From: Escherichia coli
GTDB lineage: Bacteria > Pseudomonadota > Gammaproteobacteria > Enterobacterales > Enterobacteriaceae
NCBI RefSeq assembly: GCF_003334815.1
Contig: NZ_QOWO01000011.1
Length of the DNA: 64,000 nt
Direction: 5' to 3' (one strand)
The notes under the pieces were generated by a model. The model was not told the DNA's origin. It did not search any database and saw only the letters and a list, made by a program, of their open reading frames with translations. The translations under genes and the position numbers were made by a program. Shown piece by piece: positions 7,985-56,938 of this stretch. Position 1 is the first letter of the stretch, and every line of letters begins with the position of its first letter.

Positions 7985-8980
7985 ATGAAAAAGAAAAGAC
8001 CCGTACTTCAGGATGTGGCTGACCGTGTAGGCGTGACCAAAATGACGGTCAGCCGTTTTTTACGCAACCCGGAGCAGGTTTCCGTCGCTCTACGCGGCAA
8101 GATTGCCGCGGCTCTTGATGAACTGGGCTATATTCCCAATCGTGCGCCCGATATCCTCTCTAACGCCACCAGCCGGGCGATTGGCGTCCTGTTACCTTCT
8201 CTCACCAACCAGGTTTTCGCGGAAGTATTACGCGGAATCGAAAGCGTCACCGACGCGCACGGTTATCAGACCATGCTGGCGCACTACGGTTATAAACCGG
8301 AAATGGAGCAAGAACGCCTCGAATCCATGCTCTCCTGGAATATCGACGGCCTGATCCTCACCGAACGTACCCACACGCCGCGCACCTTAAAGATGATTGA
8401 AGTGGCGGGTATTCCCGTGGTGGAACTGATGGACAGCAAGTCGCCATGCCTTGATATCGCCGTCGGTTTTGATAACTTTGAAGCAGCACGCCAGATGACC
8501 ACTGCCATTATTGCTCGCGGGCATCGCCACATTGCCTATCTCGGCGCACGTCTCGACGAACGTACTATCATCAAACAGAAGGGATACGAACAGGCGATGC
8601 TGGATGCAGGCCTGGTGCCATATAGCGTGATGGTTGAGCAATCTTCTTCTTACTCTTCCGGTATTGAACTGATTCGCCAGGCGCGGCGGGAATATCCGCA
8701 GCTGGATGGCGTGTTCTGTACGAATGATGACCTGGCGGTCGGCGCGGCGTTTGAATGTCAGCGTCTGGGGTTAAAAGTTCCTGACGATATGGCGATTGCC
8801 GGTTTCCACGGTCATGACATTGGTCAGGTGATGGAGCCACGACTTGCGAGCGTGCTGACGCCGCGTGAGCGGATGGGCAGTATTGGCGCTGAACGCCTGC
8901 TGGCGCGTATTCGTGGCGAATCTGTGACACCGAAAATGTTAGATTTAGGTTTCACCTTGTCACCGGGCGGATCTATTTAA
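7985..8980 (+). CDS. gntR: Gluconate repressor, LacI/GalR family
   Basis: 331 aa; N-terminal HTH LQDVADRVGVTKMTVSRFL; periplasmic-binding-fold C-terminus; upstream of gntKU. Confidence 0.92.
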   Translation: MKKKRPVLQDVADRVGVTKMTVSRFLRNPEQVSVALRGKIAAALDELGYIPNRAPDILSNATSRAIGVLLPSLTNQVFAEVLRGIESVTDAHGYQTMLAHYGYKPEMEQERLESMLSWNIDGLILTERTHTPRTLKMIEVAGIPVVELMDSKSPCLDIAVGFDNFEAARQMTTAIIARGHRHIAYLGARLDERTIIKQKGYEQAMLDAGLVPYSVMVEQSSSYSSGIELIRQARREYPQLDGVFCTNDDLAVGAAFECQRLGLKVPDDMAIAGFHGHDIGQVMEPRLASVLTPRERMGSIGAERLLARIRGESVTPKMLDLGFTLSPGGSI

Positions 8981-9059
8981 GCCCACAAATTTGAAGTAGC
9001 TCACACTTATACACTTAAGGCATGGATGGATATTGCTTCTGATATTGTCCGGCTGGACA

Positions 9060-9088
9060 ATGTTACCGATAACAGTTACCCGTAACAT
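9060..9088 (+). promoter_or_regulatory. GntR operator(s) in the gntK promoter
   Basis: ATGTTACCGATAACAGTTACCCGTAACAT, overlapping palindromic ATGTTACCnnTAACAT-type sites just upstream of gntK. Confidence 0.65.
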
Positions 9089-9118
9089 TTTTAATTCTTG
9101 TATTGTGGGGGCACCACT

Positions 9119-9646
9119 TTGAGCACGACTAACCATGATCACCACATTTACGTCTTGATGGGCGTATCGGGCAGCGGCAAATCTGCGGTCGCCAGTGAAG
9201 TGGCGCATCAACTTCATGCCGCGTTTCTTGATGGCGATTTCCTCCATCCACGGCGCAATATCGAAAAAATGGCGTCTGGCGAACCACTGAATGACGACGA
9301 TCGCAAACCGTGGTTGCAGGCGCTGAACGACGCCGCGTTTGCTATGCAGCGCACTAATAAAGTGTCGCTGATCGTCTGTTCTGCATTGAAAAAACACTAT
9401 CGCGACTTGCTGCGTGAAGGTAATCCGAATCTCTCTTTCATCTATTTGAAAGGCGATTTTGATGTGATTGAAAGCCGCCTGAAAGCGCGCAAAGGCCATT
9501 TCTTTAAAACCCAAATGTTGGTGACGCAGTTTGAAACGCTGCAGGAGCCGGGTGCGGACGAAACCGATGTACTGGTGGTGGATATCGATCAACCGCTGGA
9601 AGGTGTTGTGGCAAGCACCATTGAGGTTATTAAAAAAGGCAAATAA
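9119..9646 (+). CDS. gntK: Gluconokinase (thermoresistant)
   Basis: ORF-track frame 9098..9646; likely TTG start at 9119 (STTNHDHHIYVLMG...); P-loop GVSGSGKS; 175 aa. Confidence 0.88.
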   Translation: MSTTNHDHHIYVLMGVSGSGKSAVASEVAHQLHAAFLDGDFLHPRRNIEKMASGEPLNDDDRKPWLQALNDAAFAMQRTNKVSLIVCSALKKHYRDLLREGNPNLSFIYLKGDFDVIESRLKARKGHFFKTQMLVTQFETLQEPGADETDVLVVDIDQPLEGVVASTIEVIKKGK

Positions 9647-9649
9647 GTA

Positions 9650-10990
9650 GTGACTACATTAACGCTTGTTTTAACAGCAGTAGGGTCTGTTTTACTGCTG
9701 CTGTTTTTAGTCATGAAGGCGCGTATGCACGCTTTCCTGGCTTTAATGGTGGTGTCCATGGGGGCTGGCCTTTTTTCTGGTATGCCGCTCGATAAAATCG
9801 CAGCGACGATGGAAAAAGGGATGGGAGGCACCCTCGGCTTCCTGGCGGTGGTTGTCGCCCTGGGAGCTATGTTTGGCAAGATCTTACATGAAACCGGCGC
9901 AGTCGATCAGATTGCCGTCAAAATGCTCAAATCCTTCGGTCACAGCCGCGCGCATTATGCCATCGGCCTTGCGGGGCTGGTCTGTGCGCTACCGCTGTTC
10001 TTTGAAGTGGCGATAGTTCTGCTGATTAGCGTTGCTTTCTCAATGGCGCGCCACACCGGTACGAACCTGGTGAAGCTGGTAATCCCATTATTTGCAGGCG
10101 TGGCGGCAGCGGCGGCATTTCTGGTGCCTGGACCAGCGCCGATGCTGCTGGCATCGCAGATGAATGCCGACTTTGGCTGGATGATCCTGATTGGCCTGTG
10201 TGCGGCAATTCCGGGAATGATTATTGCCGGGCCGCTGTGGGGTAACTTCATCAGCCGTTACGTTGAGCTGCATATTCCTGACGACATCAGCGAACCGCAT
10301 CTCGGCGAAGGCAAAATGCCATCTTTCGGATTCAGCCTGTCGCTGATCCTGCTGCCGCTGGTGCTGGTAGGGCTGAAAACCATTGCCGCGCGTTTTGTGC
10401 CGGAAGGATCAACTGCTTACGAATGGTTTGAGTTTATCGGTCATCCGTTTACCGCGATTCTGGTTGCTTGTCTGGTGGCGATTTACGGTCTGGCAATGCG
10501 TCAGGGCATGCCAAAAGACAAAGTGATGGAGATTTGCGGTCACGCGCTGCAACCGGCGGGGATCATTCTGCTGGTGATTGGTGCGGGCGGCGTGTTCAAA
10601 CAGGTGCTGGTTGACTCTGGCGTAGGTCCGGCACTGGGCGAAGCGTTAACCGGCATGGGCCTGCCGATTGCTATCACCTGCTTCGTGCTGGCAGCTGCAG
10701 TGCGCATCATTCAGGGTTCTGCCACCGTAGCCTGTTTAACGGCGGTAGGACTGGTGATGCCGGTTATTGAACAACTGAACTACTCCGGTGCGCAAATGGC
10801 GGCGCTGTCGATTTGTATCGCTGGTGGTTCGATTGTTGTCAGCCACGTTAACGACGCCGGTTTCTGGTTGTTCGGTAAATTTACCGGCGCGACCGAAGCC
10901 GAAACGCTGAAAACCTGGACCATGATGGAAACCATCCTCGGCACTGTCGGTGCCATCGTTGGGATGATTGCGTTCCAGCTGTTGAGTTAA
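9650..10990 (+). CDS. gntU: Low-affinity gluconate permease (GntP family)
   Basis: 446-aa polytopic membrane protein, GntP-family sequence; 3 bp after the gntK stop. Confidence 0.9.
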   Translation: MTTLTLVLTAVGSVLLLLFLVMKARMHAFLALMVVSMGAGLFSGMPLDKIAATMEKGMGGTLGFLAVVVALGAMFGKILHETGAVDQIAVKMLKSFGHSRAHYAIGLAGLVCALPLFFEVAIVLLISVAFSMARHTGTNLVKLVIPLFAGVAAAAAFLVPGPAPMLLASQMNADFGWMILIGLCAAIPGMIIAGPLWGNFISRYVELHIPDDISEPHLGEGKMPSFGFSLSLILLPLVLVGLKTIAARFVPEGSTAYEWFEFIGHPFTAILVACLVAIYGLAMRQGMPKDKVMEICGHALQPAGIILLVIGAGGVFKQVLVDSGVGPALGEALTGMGLPIAITCFVLAAAVRIIQGSATVACLTAVGLVMPVIEQLNYSGAQMAALSICIAGGSIVVSHVNDAGFWLFGKFTGATEAETLKTWTMMETILGTVGAIVGMIAFQLLS

Positions 10991-22693: not shown

Positions 22694-22999
22694 ATGGAAA
22701 GAATAATGCAAAACAGAAAATGGATTTTGACCTCGCTGGTAATGACTTTTTTCGGCATCCCCATACTGGCGCAATTTTTGGCGGTGGTTATTGCCATGCT
22801 GGGTGTCGGACTTGCCGGTATTATTGAAGTTTGTAATATCCTTATCACGCCAACAATTTACCTTCTGCTCAAAATTTTTATGCTGGCGCTGGGCGCATTA
22901 ATGCTATTTTTCTCGGGGCGAGTGGGGAACGTGCCTGAGTTTTGTTACGTTGGGTATGATGGCGTGGGCTTTGCGGTAATTCCCCGAATTAAAAAGTAG
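22694..22999 (+). CDS. Hypothetical small hydrophobic protein (about 101 aa)
   Basis: ORF between glgP and glpD with two predicted membrane helices; weak SD; real coding status uncertain. Confidence 0.3.
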   Translation: MERIMQNRKWILTSLVMTFFGIPILAQFLAVVIAMLGVGLAGIIEVCNILITPTIYLLLKIFMLALGALMLFFSGRVGNVPEFCYVGYDGVGFAVIPRIKK

Positions 23000-23031
23000 G
23001 TTAGATTTTTGACAAAGTGCGCTTTGTTCAT

Positions 23032-23129
23032 GCCGGATGCGACGTGAACGTCTTATCTGGCCTACAAGACCATGCAAATTCAATATATTGCATAAACCAC
23101 GTAGGCCTGATAAGCGTAGCGCATCAGGC
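23032..23129. repeat. REP/BIME element (two inverted REP units)
   Basis: GCCGGATGCGACGTGAACGTCTTATCTGGCCTAC ... GTAGGCCTGATAAGCGTAGCGCATCAGGC. Confidence 0.8.
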
Positions 23130-23192
23130 AGTTTTGTGTTTGTCATCAGTCTCAGGCCAGATTGAAATCTGACCTGATCACCTTACGTTAAT

Positions 23193-24698
23193 TTACGACG
23201 CCAGCGATAACCTCTGCTGCGTATACTCCACCAGCCACTGACTCACACGAGATTGTTGATCCGCATTTAGCCACATGCCTTGTTTTGTGCGACGCCACAG
23301 GGCGTCGTCGGCGCGGCGGACCCATTCGTGATCCACCAGGTATTTCAGCTCCGCTTCGTAGAACTCATGACCGAAATCTTCCCCGAGATCGCTTACCGTT
23401 CCCGCATTGCCGAGCAGCAGCTCGCTGTTGCTGCCGTAAGTGCGAGCGTAATGACGCGCCAGCGATTCAGTCAGGAACGGATAGCGGCGGCGCAGGCGAG
23501 CGGCATAATCGTCGCGGTCGCCTTCAATGGCGCCACCCGGTAGCACACTCTCTTTCGTCCATGCCGGGCCAATACCCTGATAATACGGCGTTAGTTTTTC
23601 CAGCGCATGTTCCGCCAGTTTTCGGTAGGTGGTCAGCTTACCGCCGAATACCGACAGCAGCGGTGCTTTGCCATTTTCATCATGAATATCAAGGGTGTAA
23701 TCACGGGTAATAGCCTGCGGCGAGTCGGACTCATCATCACACAGCGGACGCACACCGGAGTAGGTCCAGACGATATCGTCACGGCTTAACTGCTTTTTAA
23801 AGTGCGTGTTATACACATTCAGCAGGTAATTGATTTCACTCTCTTCAATCTTCACCGCTTTCGGATCGCCTTTGTACTCGACATCGGTAGTGCCGATGAT
23901 GGAAAACTCGTCCATCCACGGGATCACGAACACAATACGTTTATCTTCGTTTTGCAGAATGTAGGCTTGCTTCTGGGTATGCACGCGCGGCACCACAATA
24001 TGGCTGCCTTTGATCAGGCGAATGCCATAAGGCGAAGGCAGATGCATCCCGTCGTCGAAGAACTGTTTCACCCACGGGCCGGTGGCGTTAACCAAGCCGC
24101 GCGCTTGCCAGCTATATTTTTTGCCGGTATCGATATCTTCCGCTTCCACAATCCACAGGCCGTTTTCGCGGCGAGCAGAGGTGGCGCGAGTCCGAGTAAG
24201 CACTTCGCCGCCTTTACGCACCACCATCTGGGCGTTGGCGAGTACCAGACGGGCGTCGTCTACCCAACAGTCAGAATATTCGAATCCGCGCTTAATTTCC
24301 GGTTTTAACACTGAATTTGCGCCAAAACGCAAACCAGTTGATCCCGGCAAGCTGGTGCGTTTACCCAGATGATCGTACATAAACAGACCAATGCGAATCA
24401 TCCACGCCGGGCGCAGATGCGGACGATGTGGCAGGCGAAAACGCATCGGGAAGGCGATATGCGGGGCCATTTTCAGCAGCACTTCACGTTCAGCCAGCGC
24501 CTCGCTGACCAGGCGGAATTCATAGTGCTCAAGGTAGCGCAGGCCACCGTGAATGAGTTTTGAACTGGCGGAAGAGGTCGCGCAAGCGAGATCCTGCGCC
24601 TCCAGCATCAGCACGGATAAACCGCGTCCAGCGGCGTCTGCCGCGATACCAGCACCATTGATGCCGCCCCCTATCACAATCAGATCTTTGGTTTCCAT
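23193..24698 (-). CDS. glpD: Aerobic glycerol-3-phosphate dehydrogenase (FAD)
   Basis: ORF-track frame 23193..24713; start at ATG 24696-24698 (METKDLIVIGGGINGAG...); FAD-binding GGGxxG; 501 aa. Confidence 0.94.
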   Translation of the reverse strand: METKDLIVIGGGINGAGIAADAAGRGLSVLMLEAQDLACATSSASSKLIHGGLRYLEHYEFRLVSEALAEREVLLKMAPHIAFPMRFRLPHRPHLRPAWMIRIGLFMYDHLGKRTSLPGSTGLRFGANSVLKPEIKRGFEYSDCWVDDARLVLANAQMVVRKGGEVLTRTRATSARRENGLWIVEAEDIDTGKKYSWQARGLVNATGPWVKQFFDDGMHLPSPYGIRLIKGSHIVVPRVHTQKQAYILQNEDKRIVFVIPWMDEFSIIGTTDVEYKGDPKAVKIEESEINYLLNVYNTHFKKQLSRDDIVWTYSGVRPLCDDESDSPQAITRDYTLDIHDENGKAPLLSVFGGKLTTYRKLAEHALEKLTPYYQGIGPAWTKESVLPGGAIEGDRDDYAARLRRRYPFLTESLARHYARTYGSNSELLLGNAGTVSDLGEDFGHEFYEAELKYLVDHEWVRRADDALWRRTKQGMWLNADQQSRVSQWLVEYTQQRLSLAS

Positions 24699-26105: not shown

Positions 26106-26864
26106 ATGAAACAAACACAACGTCACAACGGTATTATCGAACTGGTTAAACAGCAGGGTTATGTCAGTACCGAAGAGCTGGTAGAGCATTTCTCCGTCAG
26201 CCCGCAGACTATTCGCCGCGACCTCAATGAGCTGGCGGAGCAAAACCTGATCCTGCGCCATCATGGCGGTGCGGCGCTGCCTTCCAGTTCGGTTAACACG
26301 CCGTGGCACGATCGCAAGGCCACCCAGACCGAAGAAAAAGAGCGCATCGCCCGCAAAGTGGCGGAGCAAATCCCCAATGGCTCGACGCTGTTTATCGATA
26401 TCGGCACCACGCCGGAAGCGGTAGCGCACGCACTGCTCAATCACAGCAATTTGCGCATTGTCACCAACAATCTCAACGTTGCTAACACGTTGATGGTAAA
26501 AGAAGATTTTCGCATCATTCTCGCCGGTGGCGAATTACGCAGCCGCGATGGCGGGATCATTGGCGAAGCGACGCTCGATTTTATCTCCCAGTTCCGCCTT
26601 GATTTCGGCATTCTGGGGATAAGCGGCATCGATAGCGACGGCTCGCTGCTGGAGTTCGATTACCACGAAGTTCGCACCAAACGCGCCATTATTGAGAACT
26701 CGCGCCACGTTATGCTGGTTGTCGATCACTCGAAATTTGGCCGTAACGCGATGGTCAATATGGGCAGCATCAGCATGGTAGATGCCGTCTACACCGACGC
26801 CCCGCCGCCAGTAAGCGTGATGCAGGTGCTGACGGACCACCATATTCAACTGGAGCTGTGCTGA
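26106..26864 (+). CDS. glpR: Glycerol-3-phosphate regulon repressor (DeoR family)
   Basis: 252 aa; N-terminal HTH, DeoR-type sugar-phosphate domain. Confidence 0.93.
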   Translation: MKQTQRHNGIIELVKQQGYVSTEELVEHFSVSPQTIRRDLNELAEQNLILRHHGGAALPSSSVNTPWHDRKATQTEEKERIARKVAEQIPNGSTLFIDIGTTPEAVAHALLNHSNLRIVTNNLNVANTLMVKEDFRIILAGGELRSRDGGIIGEATLDFISQFRLDFGILGISGIDSDGSLLEFDYHEVRTKRAIIENSRHVMLVVDHSKFGRNAMVNMGSISMVDAVYTDAPPPVSVMQVLTDHHIQLELC

Positions 26865-28444: not shown

Positions 28445-28578
28445 CTTAGATATCCTTATAAAAGACGATATTTCATTATCGGTAAATTGGCTTTGCGGGA
28501 AATCTCCGGTTACGGACGTAAAGATATAATCTTTTTTAAAACAATGAATTAAAAAATTAAGCTGCTTATTTAATTTTC

Positions 28579-38836: not shown

Positions 38837-40153
38837 TCAAATCACCATATTCAGCAGCAGACAGCCTACCAGACCGCACACCGAGATAATGGTTTCCAGC
38901 ATCGACCAGGATTTGATGGTCTCGCCGATAGTCAGGTTAAAGTACTCTTTGAACAGCCAGAAGCCCGGATCGTTCACATGAGAGAAAATCACACTACCGG
39001 AACCAACCGCAATAACCATCAGCTCCGGGCTAACACCCGTCGTTGCAATCAGCGGTGCCGCGATACCACCCGCAGTGATTGCCGCAACGGTTGCGGAACC
39101 CAGCGCGATACGCAGTACGGCAGCAATCGACCAGGCCATCAGCAGCGGAGAAATGTTGGTTTCGTGCATCATGGAAGCAATGTATTTGTCCACGCCGCTG
39201 TCTACCAGCACCTGCTTGAACGCACCGCCACCACCGATGATCAACAGCATCATCGCAATGATTTTGATGGAAGAAACCAGCGTGTCGTTAATCTGATCCA
39301 TTGAACGACCACGGTTTAGACCAAAGGTGAACATCGCAATCAGCACGGCAATCAGCGTTGCCATTACCGGGTCACCGAGGAACTCCGCTACCGGCAGGAA
39401 AGCGTGACCTTTCGGCAGGATCATTTCGGCAATCGCACGCATCGCCATCAGTACTACCGGCACCAGAGAGGTCCAGACGCTGACGCCAAAGCTCGGCATC
39501 TCTTCTTCGCTGAAGGTTTTCGCGCTGTAGAGACCTTCCGGAATTGGCTTATCGATACCTTTCAACACGCGAGCGTAAACCGGACCGGCGAGAATCACGG
39601 TCGGGATTGCCAGAATAGTACCGTACAGCAGGGTTTTACCCATATCGGCATTGAAAATGGTGGCAATCGCAGTCGGACCCGGATGCGGTGGCAGGAAGCC
39701 GTGGGTCACAGACAGTGCAGCCGCCATTGGTACACCAACATACAGCAGTGGAATATTCGCAGAAGCCGCGATGGTAAACACCAGCGGCAGCATCAGCACA
39801 AAGCCCACTTCATAGAACAGGGCAAAACCAACGGTAAAACCGGTCAGTACCACCGCCCACTGGATGTGTTTTTTACCAAATTTGGCAATCAGCGTGGTGG
39901 CGATACGTTGTGCGCCACCGCAGTCTGCCAGCATTTTGCCCAGCATTGCGCCAAAACCCATGATCAGGGCAAGGCTACCGAGCGTCCCGCCGACACCGGC
40001 TTTGATGGAGCCAATAACTTTATCCAGCGGCATTCCTTGCATTAATCCAACAGCAAGCGCCACGAGGACGAGAGCGATGAAGCCGTTCATTTTGAAGCGG
40101 ATCATCAGGAGCAACAACAAGATTACACCGATAGCAACAATGACTAATGGCAT
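38837..40153 (-). CDS. gntT: High-affinity gluconate permease (GntP family)
   Basis: 438-aa membrane protein paralogous to gntU in this window. Confidence 0.92.
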   Translation of the reverse strand: MPLVIVAIGVILLLLLMIRFKMNGFIALVLVALAVGLMQGMPLDKVIGSIKAGVGGTLGSLALIMGFGAMLGKMLADCGGAQRIATTLIAKFGKKHIQWAVVLTGFTVGFALFYEVGFVLMLPLVFTIAASANIPLLYVGVPMAAALSVTHGFLPPHPGPTAIATIFNADMGKTLLYGTILAIPTVILAGPVYARVLKGIDKPIPEGLYSAKTFSEEEMPSFGVSVWTSLVPVVLMAMRAIAEMILPKGHAFLPVAEFLGDPVMATLIAVLIAMFTFGLNRGRSMDQINDTLVSSIKIIAMMLLIIGGGGAFKQVLVDSGVDKYIASMMHETNISPLLMAWSIAAVLRIALGSATVAAITAGGIAAPLIATTGVSPELMVIAVGSGSVIFSHVNDPGFWLFKEYFNLTIGETIKSWSMLETIISVCGLVGCLLLNMVI

Positions 40154-40313
40154 GATTTACCTGGCCTTTCATTTGTTATGGGTAACGTCAATTTTCTGAC
40201 GACAAACTCTAATTATCCCAATCGGGAACAGAGATATTGCGGCACCACGACTGATACCCACTAAAACTAATTATTGTAGTCAGATGTCAGGAGTATGTTT
40301 GGTACCCATGTGA

Positions 40314-40329
40314 ATGATACGGGTAACAT
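40314..40329. promoter_or_regulatory. GntR operator in the gntT promoter
   Basis: ATGATACGGGTAACAT, same half-site architecture as the gntK operator. Confidence 0.55.
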
Positions 40330-40456
40330 CTGGCGTTTGAGAATCACCAGAGCGGGGTAAATTTAAATTATGAGAGGTTGGTCATATTATCGCGGGGAAA
40401 CGAACCGAGGATTTGACAAAGCAATGCTGCGCCAACGTCTGGCACATGTTCAACGT

Positions 40457-40512
<56 letters not shown>

Positions 40513-41088
40513 TTAGTAGTAGGAGTGTTCGCCGCGCTGGTGTTCGGTGAGATCGCGCACACCTTTCAGCTCCGGGAATTCGTTCAGCAGCTGCTTCTCG
40601 ATCCCTTCTTTCAGCGTCACATCGACCATGGAACAACCGTTACAGCCGCCGCCAAATTGCAGAATGGCGTAACCGTCTTCGGTGATTTCCATCAGCGAAA
40701 CGCGACCACCGTGACCAGCAAGCTGTGGGTTGATCTGCGACTGCAGCATATACTCCACGCGCTCCATCAGCGGTGCATCGTCTGCCACTTTACGCATTTT
40801 GGCGTTCGGGGCTTTCAGCGTTAACTGGGAACCCAACTGGTCGGTAACAAAATCGATCTCTGCATCTTCCAGGTATGGTGCGCTTAACTCATCAACATAC
40901 GCGGTCAGCAGGTCAAATTTCAGGGCTGTGTCGGTGGCTTCCACAGCGTCCGGCGGACAATAAGAAACGCCACATTCAGCGTTAGGCGTGCCAGGGTTAA
41001 TCACAAATACGCGGATTTGTGTCCCTTCTTCCTGATTTGCCAGCAGTTTGGCAAAGTGCGCTTGTGCAGCATCGGAAATACGGATCAT
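40513..41088 (-). CDS. nfuA: Fe/S cluster carrier protein NfuA
   Basis: 191 aa; C-terminal Nfu domain with GGGCNGC (CxxC) motif. Confidence 0.92.
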
Positions 41089-56059: not shown

Positions 56060-56938
56060 TTAATGAACTTGCGGATCTGCCGGAGACGCGTTGTTGCGGA
56101 TTTCAGCAATATCCATCGCATTGAACAGATAGTGGTTACCGCAGTAATCACAATGCATGTCAATTTCGCCATCTTCCGCCAGGATGCTATCAACTTCTTC
56201 ATCAGGCAGCGTTTTCAGCGCATCGGCGCAACGTTCACGCGAGCAGGTGCATTTGAACTCCACATCCTGCGGATCGTAAACCGTCACCTCTTCTTCGTGA
56301 TACAAACGCCACAACACTTCGTTTGCCGGTAAGGTCAGCAGTTCTTCGGTTTTGATGGTTTCGGTTAGCGTCGCCAGGTGGTCAAAGTCGTCCTGCTGGG
56401 CATTTTGCGCAGGCATTACCTGCAACAACATACCGCCTGCAGCCGGTTTGCCGTCTACGTCGCCGGTGCGAATAAACAGGCGCGTCGGCAGCTGTTCAGA
56501 ACGCATAAAGTAATCTTCCAGGCAGGCCGCCAGGGTATCACCTTCCAGACCAACTACGCCCTGATAGCGTTCGCCTTCGCTCGGGGTAATGGTGATCACC
56601 ACGTAACCATTGCCGACCAGCGTTTTCAGGTCGGCATTTTCTGGAATTTCGCCCTGCACGCGCGCCACACCGCGCATCTGCTGGTTATTGTTACCGTTAA
56701 TAACCGCCAGATTCATCGGACCGTCGCCCTGCAGCTGTACGGTGATATCACCATCAAACTTCAGCGTAGCGGTTAACAGGCTGGTCGCAACCAGCAGTTC
56801 TGCCAGCACGTTTTTAACGGGCTGCGGATAATCGTGGTTCTCAAGGATCTGTTGCAGGGTTTCCGAAACGGTTACCAGTTCGCCGCGCACGGCAAAGTTT
56901 TCAAACAGATAGCGATGTAATTGGTCATGTTGCGGCAT
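56060..56938 (-). CDS. hslO: Redox-regulated chaperone Hsp33
   Basis: ORF-track frame 56060..56944; start at ATG 56936-56938 ([12 protein letters not shown]...); C-terminal zinc centre CTC ... C ... CDYC. Confidence 0.94.

Follow-up and report, generated by a model that had tools for sequence, protein, structure and literature searches.

The stretch of DNA analysed here (64,000 nucleotides of an Escherichia coli contig, hereafter 'the window') carries two physically separated groups of gluconate genes. In the first, yhhW (a gene call at 7066-7761, plus strand) is followed on the same strand by gntR (7985-8980), annotated as such in E. coli genomes and encoding the LacI-family gluconate repressor (it matches the NCBIfam equivalog NF011563 with 776 bits, the cut-off being 433). 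Then come gntK, encoding gluconokinase (9119-9646, plus strand, with a TTG start; NF008583, 374 bits against a cut-off of 265), and gntU, encoding the low-affinity gluconate transporter (9650-10990, plus strand; NF007781, 916 bits against 625), both also supported by annotation. The genes asd, glgBXCAP, glpD/EGR, rtc, malT and malPQ come next in order before gntT, which encodes the high-affinity gluconate transporter (38837-40153, minus strand; NF011560, 931 bits against 744, and annotation). A gene call for nfuA lies beyond it on the minus strand (40513-41088). All four gluconate proteins (GntR, GntK, GntU and GntT) are thus matched at the equivalog level, and the gene assignments of a preliminary description of this DNA, including that of the repressor at 7985-8980, are correct. 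That description had also placed the two gluconate loci far apart, on either side of the glycogen and maltose genes; the gntK and gntT sites considered below are indeed separated by 31.25 kb with these genes between them. The mechanical open reading frame of gntK begins at a TTG at 9098. The annotated start, the TTG at 9119, is favoured because positions 9089-9112 are poorly conserved across genera.

Of 5426 complete genomes, 5425 have an E. coli chromosome that matches the region of the locus. The window is of K-12-like type: positions 4711-42712 align in reverse orientation with MG1655 3544000-3582000 at 99.976% identity (8 substitutions and 1 indel), and none of these differences falls inside the operator or promoter sites discussed here. 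The window has an extra C at 26256 relative to MG1655 3560455, inside glpR; since MG1655 glpR carries a pseudogene annotation, the copy in the window is probably intact. Two insertions of E. coli strain 720632 are missing from the window: one of about 3.4 kb between glgP and glpD, comprising a PstS-like gene and three hypothetical genes (window 22927-23193), and an IS1 between rtcR and rtcB (window 28523-28529). Upstream of the gluconate genes, the small RNA RyhB (Rfam RF00057, 83 bits; 5724-5788, plus strand), located between yhhX and yhhY, is the sole Rfam match at the gathering threshold within the window. The gene yhhZ (3670-4848, minus strand), an Hcp1-family type VI secretion effector by the annotation of one genome, is adjoined by the small genes yrhA, yrhD and yrhB.

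In the spacer between gntR and gntK, positions 9060-9088 read ATGTTACCGATAACAGTTACCCGTAACAT, exactly as previously written. The preliminary description had taken this 29-mer as a single operator element. It is a GntR site, but it consists of two overlapping 16-bp operators, O_K1 (ATGTTACCGATAACAG, 9060-9075) and O_K2 (CAGTTACCCGTAACAT, 9073-9088), which share 3 bp and have their centres 13 bp apart. Together they occupy the interval 31-59 bp ahead of the gntK start codon, over the putative transcription start, at about -7 to +9 (O_K1) and +7 to +22 (O_K2) in the numbering that follows from that start.

Further upstream, a CRP-like site (TTTGAAGTAGCTCACA, 8990-9005) has one mismatch to TGTGA-N6-TCACA. 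The RegulonDB v8 paper (PMC3531196) puts the CRP site that activates gntKp at -69.5, and we infer that the two are the same; as the centre of the site in the window is at 8997.5, this would put the gntK start at about 9067. The corresponding candidate -35 hexamer is TTGCTT (9033-9038, plus strand), part of which belongs to an ATTGC (9032-9036) that is invariant in 78 loci. It is followed after 17 bp by a conserved candidate -10 hexamer, GACAAT (9056-9061, plus strand). Both were assigned from conservation and the published CRP position. They are weak (7 of 12 matches), and a consensus promoter scan of the gntK region missed them, its sole call there being a minus-strand artefact in the end of gntR.

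The conservation of this spacer was followed in 80 Enterobacteriaceae loci whose GntR proteins show 93-100% identity; two of these end just after gntR, leaving 78 that are readable. Every one of the 78 has the double operator, always with the 13-bp offset, and both O_K1 and O_K2 are kept throughout, variation being almost confined to the junction base (A or T) and the last base. A per-column profile of the 78 loci resolves four conserved islands. The first (8985-9009) includes the strongly conserved CRP-like site, the second is ATTGCTTCT with the candidate -35, the third is GGACAAT with the candidate -10, and the fourth is formed by the operators. Conservation is lost in the 25 bp that follow the operators. 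Within the species, a 44-nucleotide megablast query recovered the gntK operator region from 5403 of 5426 genomes (4382 identical), and the same test matched the gntT sites in 3982 and 4500 genomes; these counts are not site-specific, as the 28-nucleotide exact word loses genomes with SNPs in the flanks.

The inverted repeats at 9060-9088 lie 80 bp past the gntR stop codon and are followed by a run of T, an arrangement that could also suggest an RNA hairpin acting as a terminator or attenuator of read-through from gntR. Folded as RNA, 9050-9100 reaches no more than -5.7 kcal/mol, its z-score relative to shuffled sequences is 0.00, and no terminator-like site was found at 8900-9200. The conservation at 9060-9088, moreover, tracks the half-sites of a DNA palindrome. 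On the folding and terminator results we rejected the hairpin, and consider this reading very improbable.

At the second locus, positions 40314-40329 read ATGATACGGGTAACAT, again exactly as previously written; this is the reverse complement of ATGTTACCCGTATCAT, the operator O_T1 on the minus strand. Here the preliminary description was right but incomplete, in that it overlooked a second operator, O_T2 (ACGTTACCCATAACAA on the minus strand, 40173-40188), about 141 bp downstream of O_T1, 20 bp before the gntT ATG and just ahead of the ribosome-binding site. In this case the promoter scan did identify hexamers on the minus strand: a -10, TATCAT (40314-40319), which lies inside O_T1 and is also named in bioRxiv 10.1101/2023.01.10.523462, and, across an 18-bp spacer, a -35, TTCTCA (40338-40343), within the block GGTGATTCTC. 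From the predicted -10 the start would be at about 40307 on the minus strand; the numbering derived from it puts O_T1 at about -22 to -7, O_T2 at about +120 to +135 and the centre of a CRP-like site (TATGACCAACCTCTCA on the minus strand, 40371-40386, with two mismatches to the consensus) at about -71.5. A terminator-like hairpin with a T-rich tail (40428-40446, minus strand), downstream of nfuA and just upstream of this CRP site, probably insulates gntT from nfuA read-through.

For comparison, gntT orthologues were collected by protein search and the DNA of eight loci was compared (E. coli, Salmonella enterica subsp. diarizonae, Klebsiella pneumoniae, Kosakonia, two species of Shimwellia and two metagenome contigs). 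All 16 positions of O_T1 are invariant in the eight loci, as is the O_T2 core TTACC-ATAACA. The block GGTGATTCTC, identical in the four upstream regions aligned first, is mostly kept in all eight, and the CRP half-sites are largely conserved. The leader between O_T1 and O_T2, on the other hand, has diverged and contains many indels.

A third operator-like sequence, CTGTTACCCGTATCTT, occurs 120 bp upstream of the promoter operator in Kosakonia (L085 1205-1220) and is absent from E. coli. Tandem operators with an offset of 14 bp, rather than 13, are found at a gntT-like transporter gene in a contig with a Yersinia aleksiciae-named GntT orthologue (L088 1224-1501), in Brenneria izadpanahii (L089 1242-1501) and in a contig with a Pantoea agglomerans orthologue (L087 1360-1389). 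In the first two the gntT-like gene is divergent from gntK, and it lies beside gntR in L088 and beside yhgN and asd in L089. Because of these arrangements in Yersinia, Brenneria and Pantoea, the position of E. coli gntT away from gntRKU looks derived.

The four sites can be described by a 16-bp imperfect palindrome with the consensus ATGTTACCCGTAACAT, from which each differs by 1-3 mismatches, or by its 14-mer core TGTTACCCGTAACA, from which each differs by 1-2. Two of the four have a CC centre instead of a CG step. We carried out the motif scan proposed in the preliminary description with this LacI-type palindrome. A scan for sites of this repressor must use the E. coli motif of that type and not the motifs of the winged-helix GntR family, since E. 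coli GntR is a LacI-family protein. Allowing up to two mismatches to the core, the window contains five matches at four distinct sites (9061-9074, 9074-9087, 40315-40328 and 40174-40187), compared with an expectation of 0.26, and none falls outside the two gluconate promoter regions. With up to three mismatches there are 13 matches compared with 3.6 expected. No candidate for autoregulation was found with up to three mismatches upstream of gntR (7762-7984), which is consistent with the statement in PMC12195362 that GntR is expressed constitutively.

Short AT-rich intergenic palindromes might recur by chance with no shared regulator, and weak matches with three mismatches do occur elsewhere in the window. 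Only one of these is palindromic (56689-56702); it lies inside the long open reading frame hslO and is itself probably a chance match. None of 100 shuffled sequences reached the observed five matches at up to two mismatches, and the sites are invariant across genera while the neighbouring bases diverge. Chance similarity was rejected on the shuffles and the conservation; as the function of these sequences has also been published (PMC10450161; bioRxiv 10.1101/2023.01.10.523462), we give it practically no weight.

Each putative start has a conserved CRP-like site about 70 bp upstream, although consensus CRP matches are not enriched in the window (20 found compared with 25 expected). The identification of the two CRP sites therefore relies on conservation and the literature. 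Both promoters may be of the class I CRP-activated type, in which the CRP site is centred near -61.5, -71.5 or similar and on the face of the DNA that RNA polymerase occupies. A CRP site was detected at seven of the eight gntT loci, and in each of these O_T1 is offset from it by exactly 57 bp; in all eight, 19-21 bp separate O_T2 from the ATG. The O_T1-O_T2 offset, in contrast, is 141, 144, 141, 146, 141, 144, 144 and 65 bp, spacings that span almost a whole helical turn with no conserved phase. The shortest belongs to one metagenome contig (L095 1401-1481) with a shortened gntT leader and the synteny nfuA-gntT-malQ. The geometry from CRP site to operator is thus fixed across genera and the distance between the two gntT operators is variable.

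These spacings bear on how O_T2 works. The original gntT study reportedly proposed looping and found that both operators are needed for full repression. LacI tetramerises through a C-terminal helix; GntR, with 331 amino acids, is shorter than the 360-amino-acid Lac repressor chains that it matches. O_T2 might then act alone, as a roadblock or auxiliary site, without forming a helically phased repression loop together with O_T1. The constant distance to the ATG, against an unphased distance to O_T1, could mean that its position is set by the translation start and not by O_T1. In supercoiled DNA, however, a loop of about 140 bp can accommodate changes of phase, and only eight loci were sampled, with the 65-bp case being a single contig. 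We therefore regard an O_T2 that works alone as unlikely, if worth considering, while noting that the unphased spacing is explained no less well by an O_T2 that acts independently, or without regard to phase, than by a loop with strict phasing. At gntK, GntR may bind the two overlapping operators in turn and not both at once. A combined scheme, in which O_T2 is placed relative to the translation start and represses as an independent roadblock or by a phase-insensitive contact, with the gntK pair perhaps similarly occupied in alternation, is offered as a speculation that we think quite unlikely to hold in full.

For binding and induction we draw on the literature, which complements our own analysis of sequence, statistical excess, conservation and repressor family. 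In a mammalian system, ATGTTACCGATAACAG and the consensus ATGTTACCCGTAACAT drove gluconate-responsive GntR switches, and deletion of the site or a 2-bp insertion at its centre abolished the response to gluconate (PMC10450161). In a cell-free system, ATGTTACCCGTATCAT conferred GntR repression that was relieved by gluconate (bioRxiv 10.1101/2023.01.10.523462, which cites Peekhaus and Conway 1998 and Izu 1997). As summarised in PMC2230225, gluconate inhibits GntR binding at the gntT promoter, 6-phosphogluconate does so at higher concentration, and cAMP-CRP activates the gnt genes. The promoter gntTp has been described as having two GntR sites and a CRP site (bioRxiv 10.1101/2024.12.09.627516). 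At gntKU, the statement in PMC4052901 that cites Tsunedomi 2003a describes the overlapping upstream sites, about 13 bp apart, as functional for GntR; the overlapping arrangement is conserved in more than half of the GntR-regulated operons of gamma-proteobacteria (PMC4052901). Comparison of an inactive gntR with the wild type showed changes of at least 2-fold in the gntT, gntK, gntU and idnK transcripts, and PgntK was employed as a GntR-responsive promoter (PMC13386637). The earlier claim of matching GntR operators at both loci is borne out by these publications, since both sequences are published GntR operators, and the phylogenetic footprints obtained here agree.

The same palindrome occurs at other members of the regulon. 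In MG1655 it is found upstream of edd as ATGTTACCGGTAAAAT, 195-210 bp before the ATG and near the end of zwf, and as TTGTTACGCGTAACAA, 12-27 bp inside the edd coding region (the pair being at L090 5078-5093 / 5300-5315), as well as in the idnD/idnK spacer as ATGTTACGCATAACGT. Judged from sequence, the gntK and gntT sites qualify as GntR operators of the GntI regulon: they have the palindrome, the position at a core promoter, the cognate repressor, the conservation and the other regulon members.

The idn site raises the question of whether the LacI-family paralogue IdnR (GntH) binds the gntK and gntT sites mainly or in addition, integrating signals from idonate and 5-ketogluconate (GntII). Among the NCBIfam matches of the GntR protein, IdnR ranks second (402 bits), and the motif in the idnD/idnK spacer is the same as in the gntK and gntT operators. 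GntR recognises IdnR sites (PMC4052901), and the title of Tsunedomi 2003a, cited in that paper, states that GntH negatively controls the GntR-regulated genes of GntI. Cross-binding is thus plausible and published, but such cross-talk would supplement GntR control and leave it in place. In the cell-free and mammalian systems, GntR needs no second regulator to repress through these very sequences (bioRxiv 10.1101/2023.01.10.523462; PMC10450161), and the transcript changes cited above for gntT, gntK and gntU follow inactivation of gntR alone (PMC13386637). In addition, idnR is absent from the window and unlinked to the gntK and gntT loci. We consider a main or shared role of IdnR at these sites possible, though on balance rather unlikely.

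We conclude that the four sites are almost certainly GntR operators of the E. coli GntI gluconate regulon, with repression released by gluconate and activation by CRP. In the mechanism that best explains them, dimers of GntR (7985-8980) bind the 16-bp imperfect palindromes. At gntKU, O_K1 and O_K2 would cover the region of the transcription start (about -7 to +22) and, at gntT, O_T1 covers the -10 hexamer with O_T2 about 141 bp downstream. GntR on O_K1/O_K2 and on O_T1 occludes the core promoter and blocks RNA polymerase, and O_T2 adds to the repression of gntT. Gluconate, or 6-phosphogluconate at higher concentration, frees the operators of GntR, and cAMP-CRP, bound about 70 bp upstream of each putative start, activates both promoters. 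Release of GntR combined with activation by cAMP-CRP results in an AND-type logic that restricts expression to conditions with gluconate available and preferred sugars lacking.

The GntR operators at gntKU and gntT are already known and published. Control of these genes by GntR has been a textbook regulon since 1996-2003, the operators already serve as parts in synthetic biology, and the result contains nothing new for biology. Its value is that of a positive control: a validated regulatory link between loci 31 kb apart was recovered from raw sequence, and the analysis fills in four operators and two CRP sites.

The repressor itself must be distinguished from its namesakes. GntR has the domain architecture of LacI. 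Every NCBIfam match of GntR is of the LacI type, its best matches among solved structures are LacI/PurR/CcpA-type regulators and PMC4797297 places it in the LacI family; among these matches none was to the winged-helix GntR family (FadR/HutC type). Bacillus subtilis GntR and the 'GntR family' called after the Bacillus protein (for example, the FadR and HutC subfamilies) share with it the name and the gluconate-responsive repression of gnt genes, but the fold of the B. subtilis protein and its DNA motif are unrelated. The relevant comparison is with the operators of LacI, PurR, GalR and CcpA, which are likewise 16-bp imperfect palindromes bound by dimers through an N-terminal helix-turn-helix, and the auxiliary operator downstream of the gntT promoter recalls lac O2 and gal OI. 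Unlike LacI-family operators generally, two of the four GntR operators have CC centres, one pair overlaps with a 13-bp offset (a feature of GntR-group regulons; PMC4052901) and the phase between O_T1 and O_T2 is unconserved. The operators of IdnR (GntH) at idnK/idnDOTR and those of GntR at edd-eda have the same palindrome as the gntK and gntT sites; they differ in that the idn and edd loci lie outside the window and the primary regulator of the idn genes is another. Finally, the sites at gntT are at the same locus as, and identical in sequence to, the promoter operators described by Peekhaus and Conway (1998, J Bacteriol 180:1777) and Porco et al. (1997), with no difference, and those at gntK are at the same locus as the tandem gntKU elements of Izu et al. 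(1997, J Mol Biol 267:778) and Tsunedomi et al. (2003, J Bacteriol 185:1783), again with no difference.
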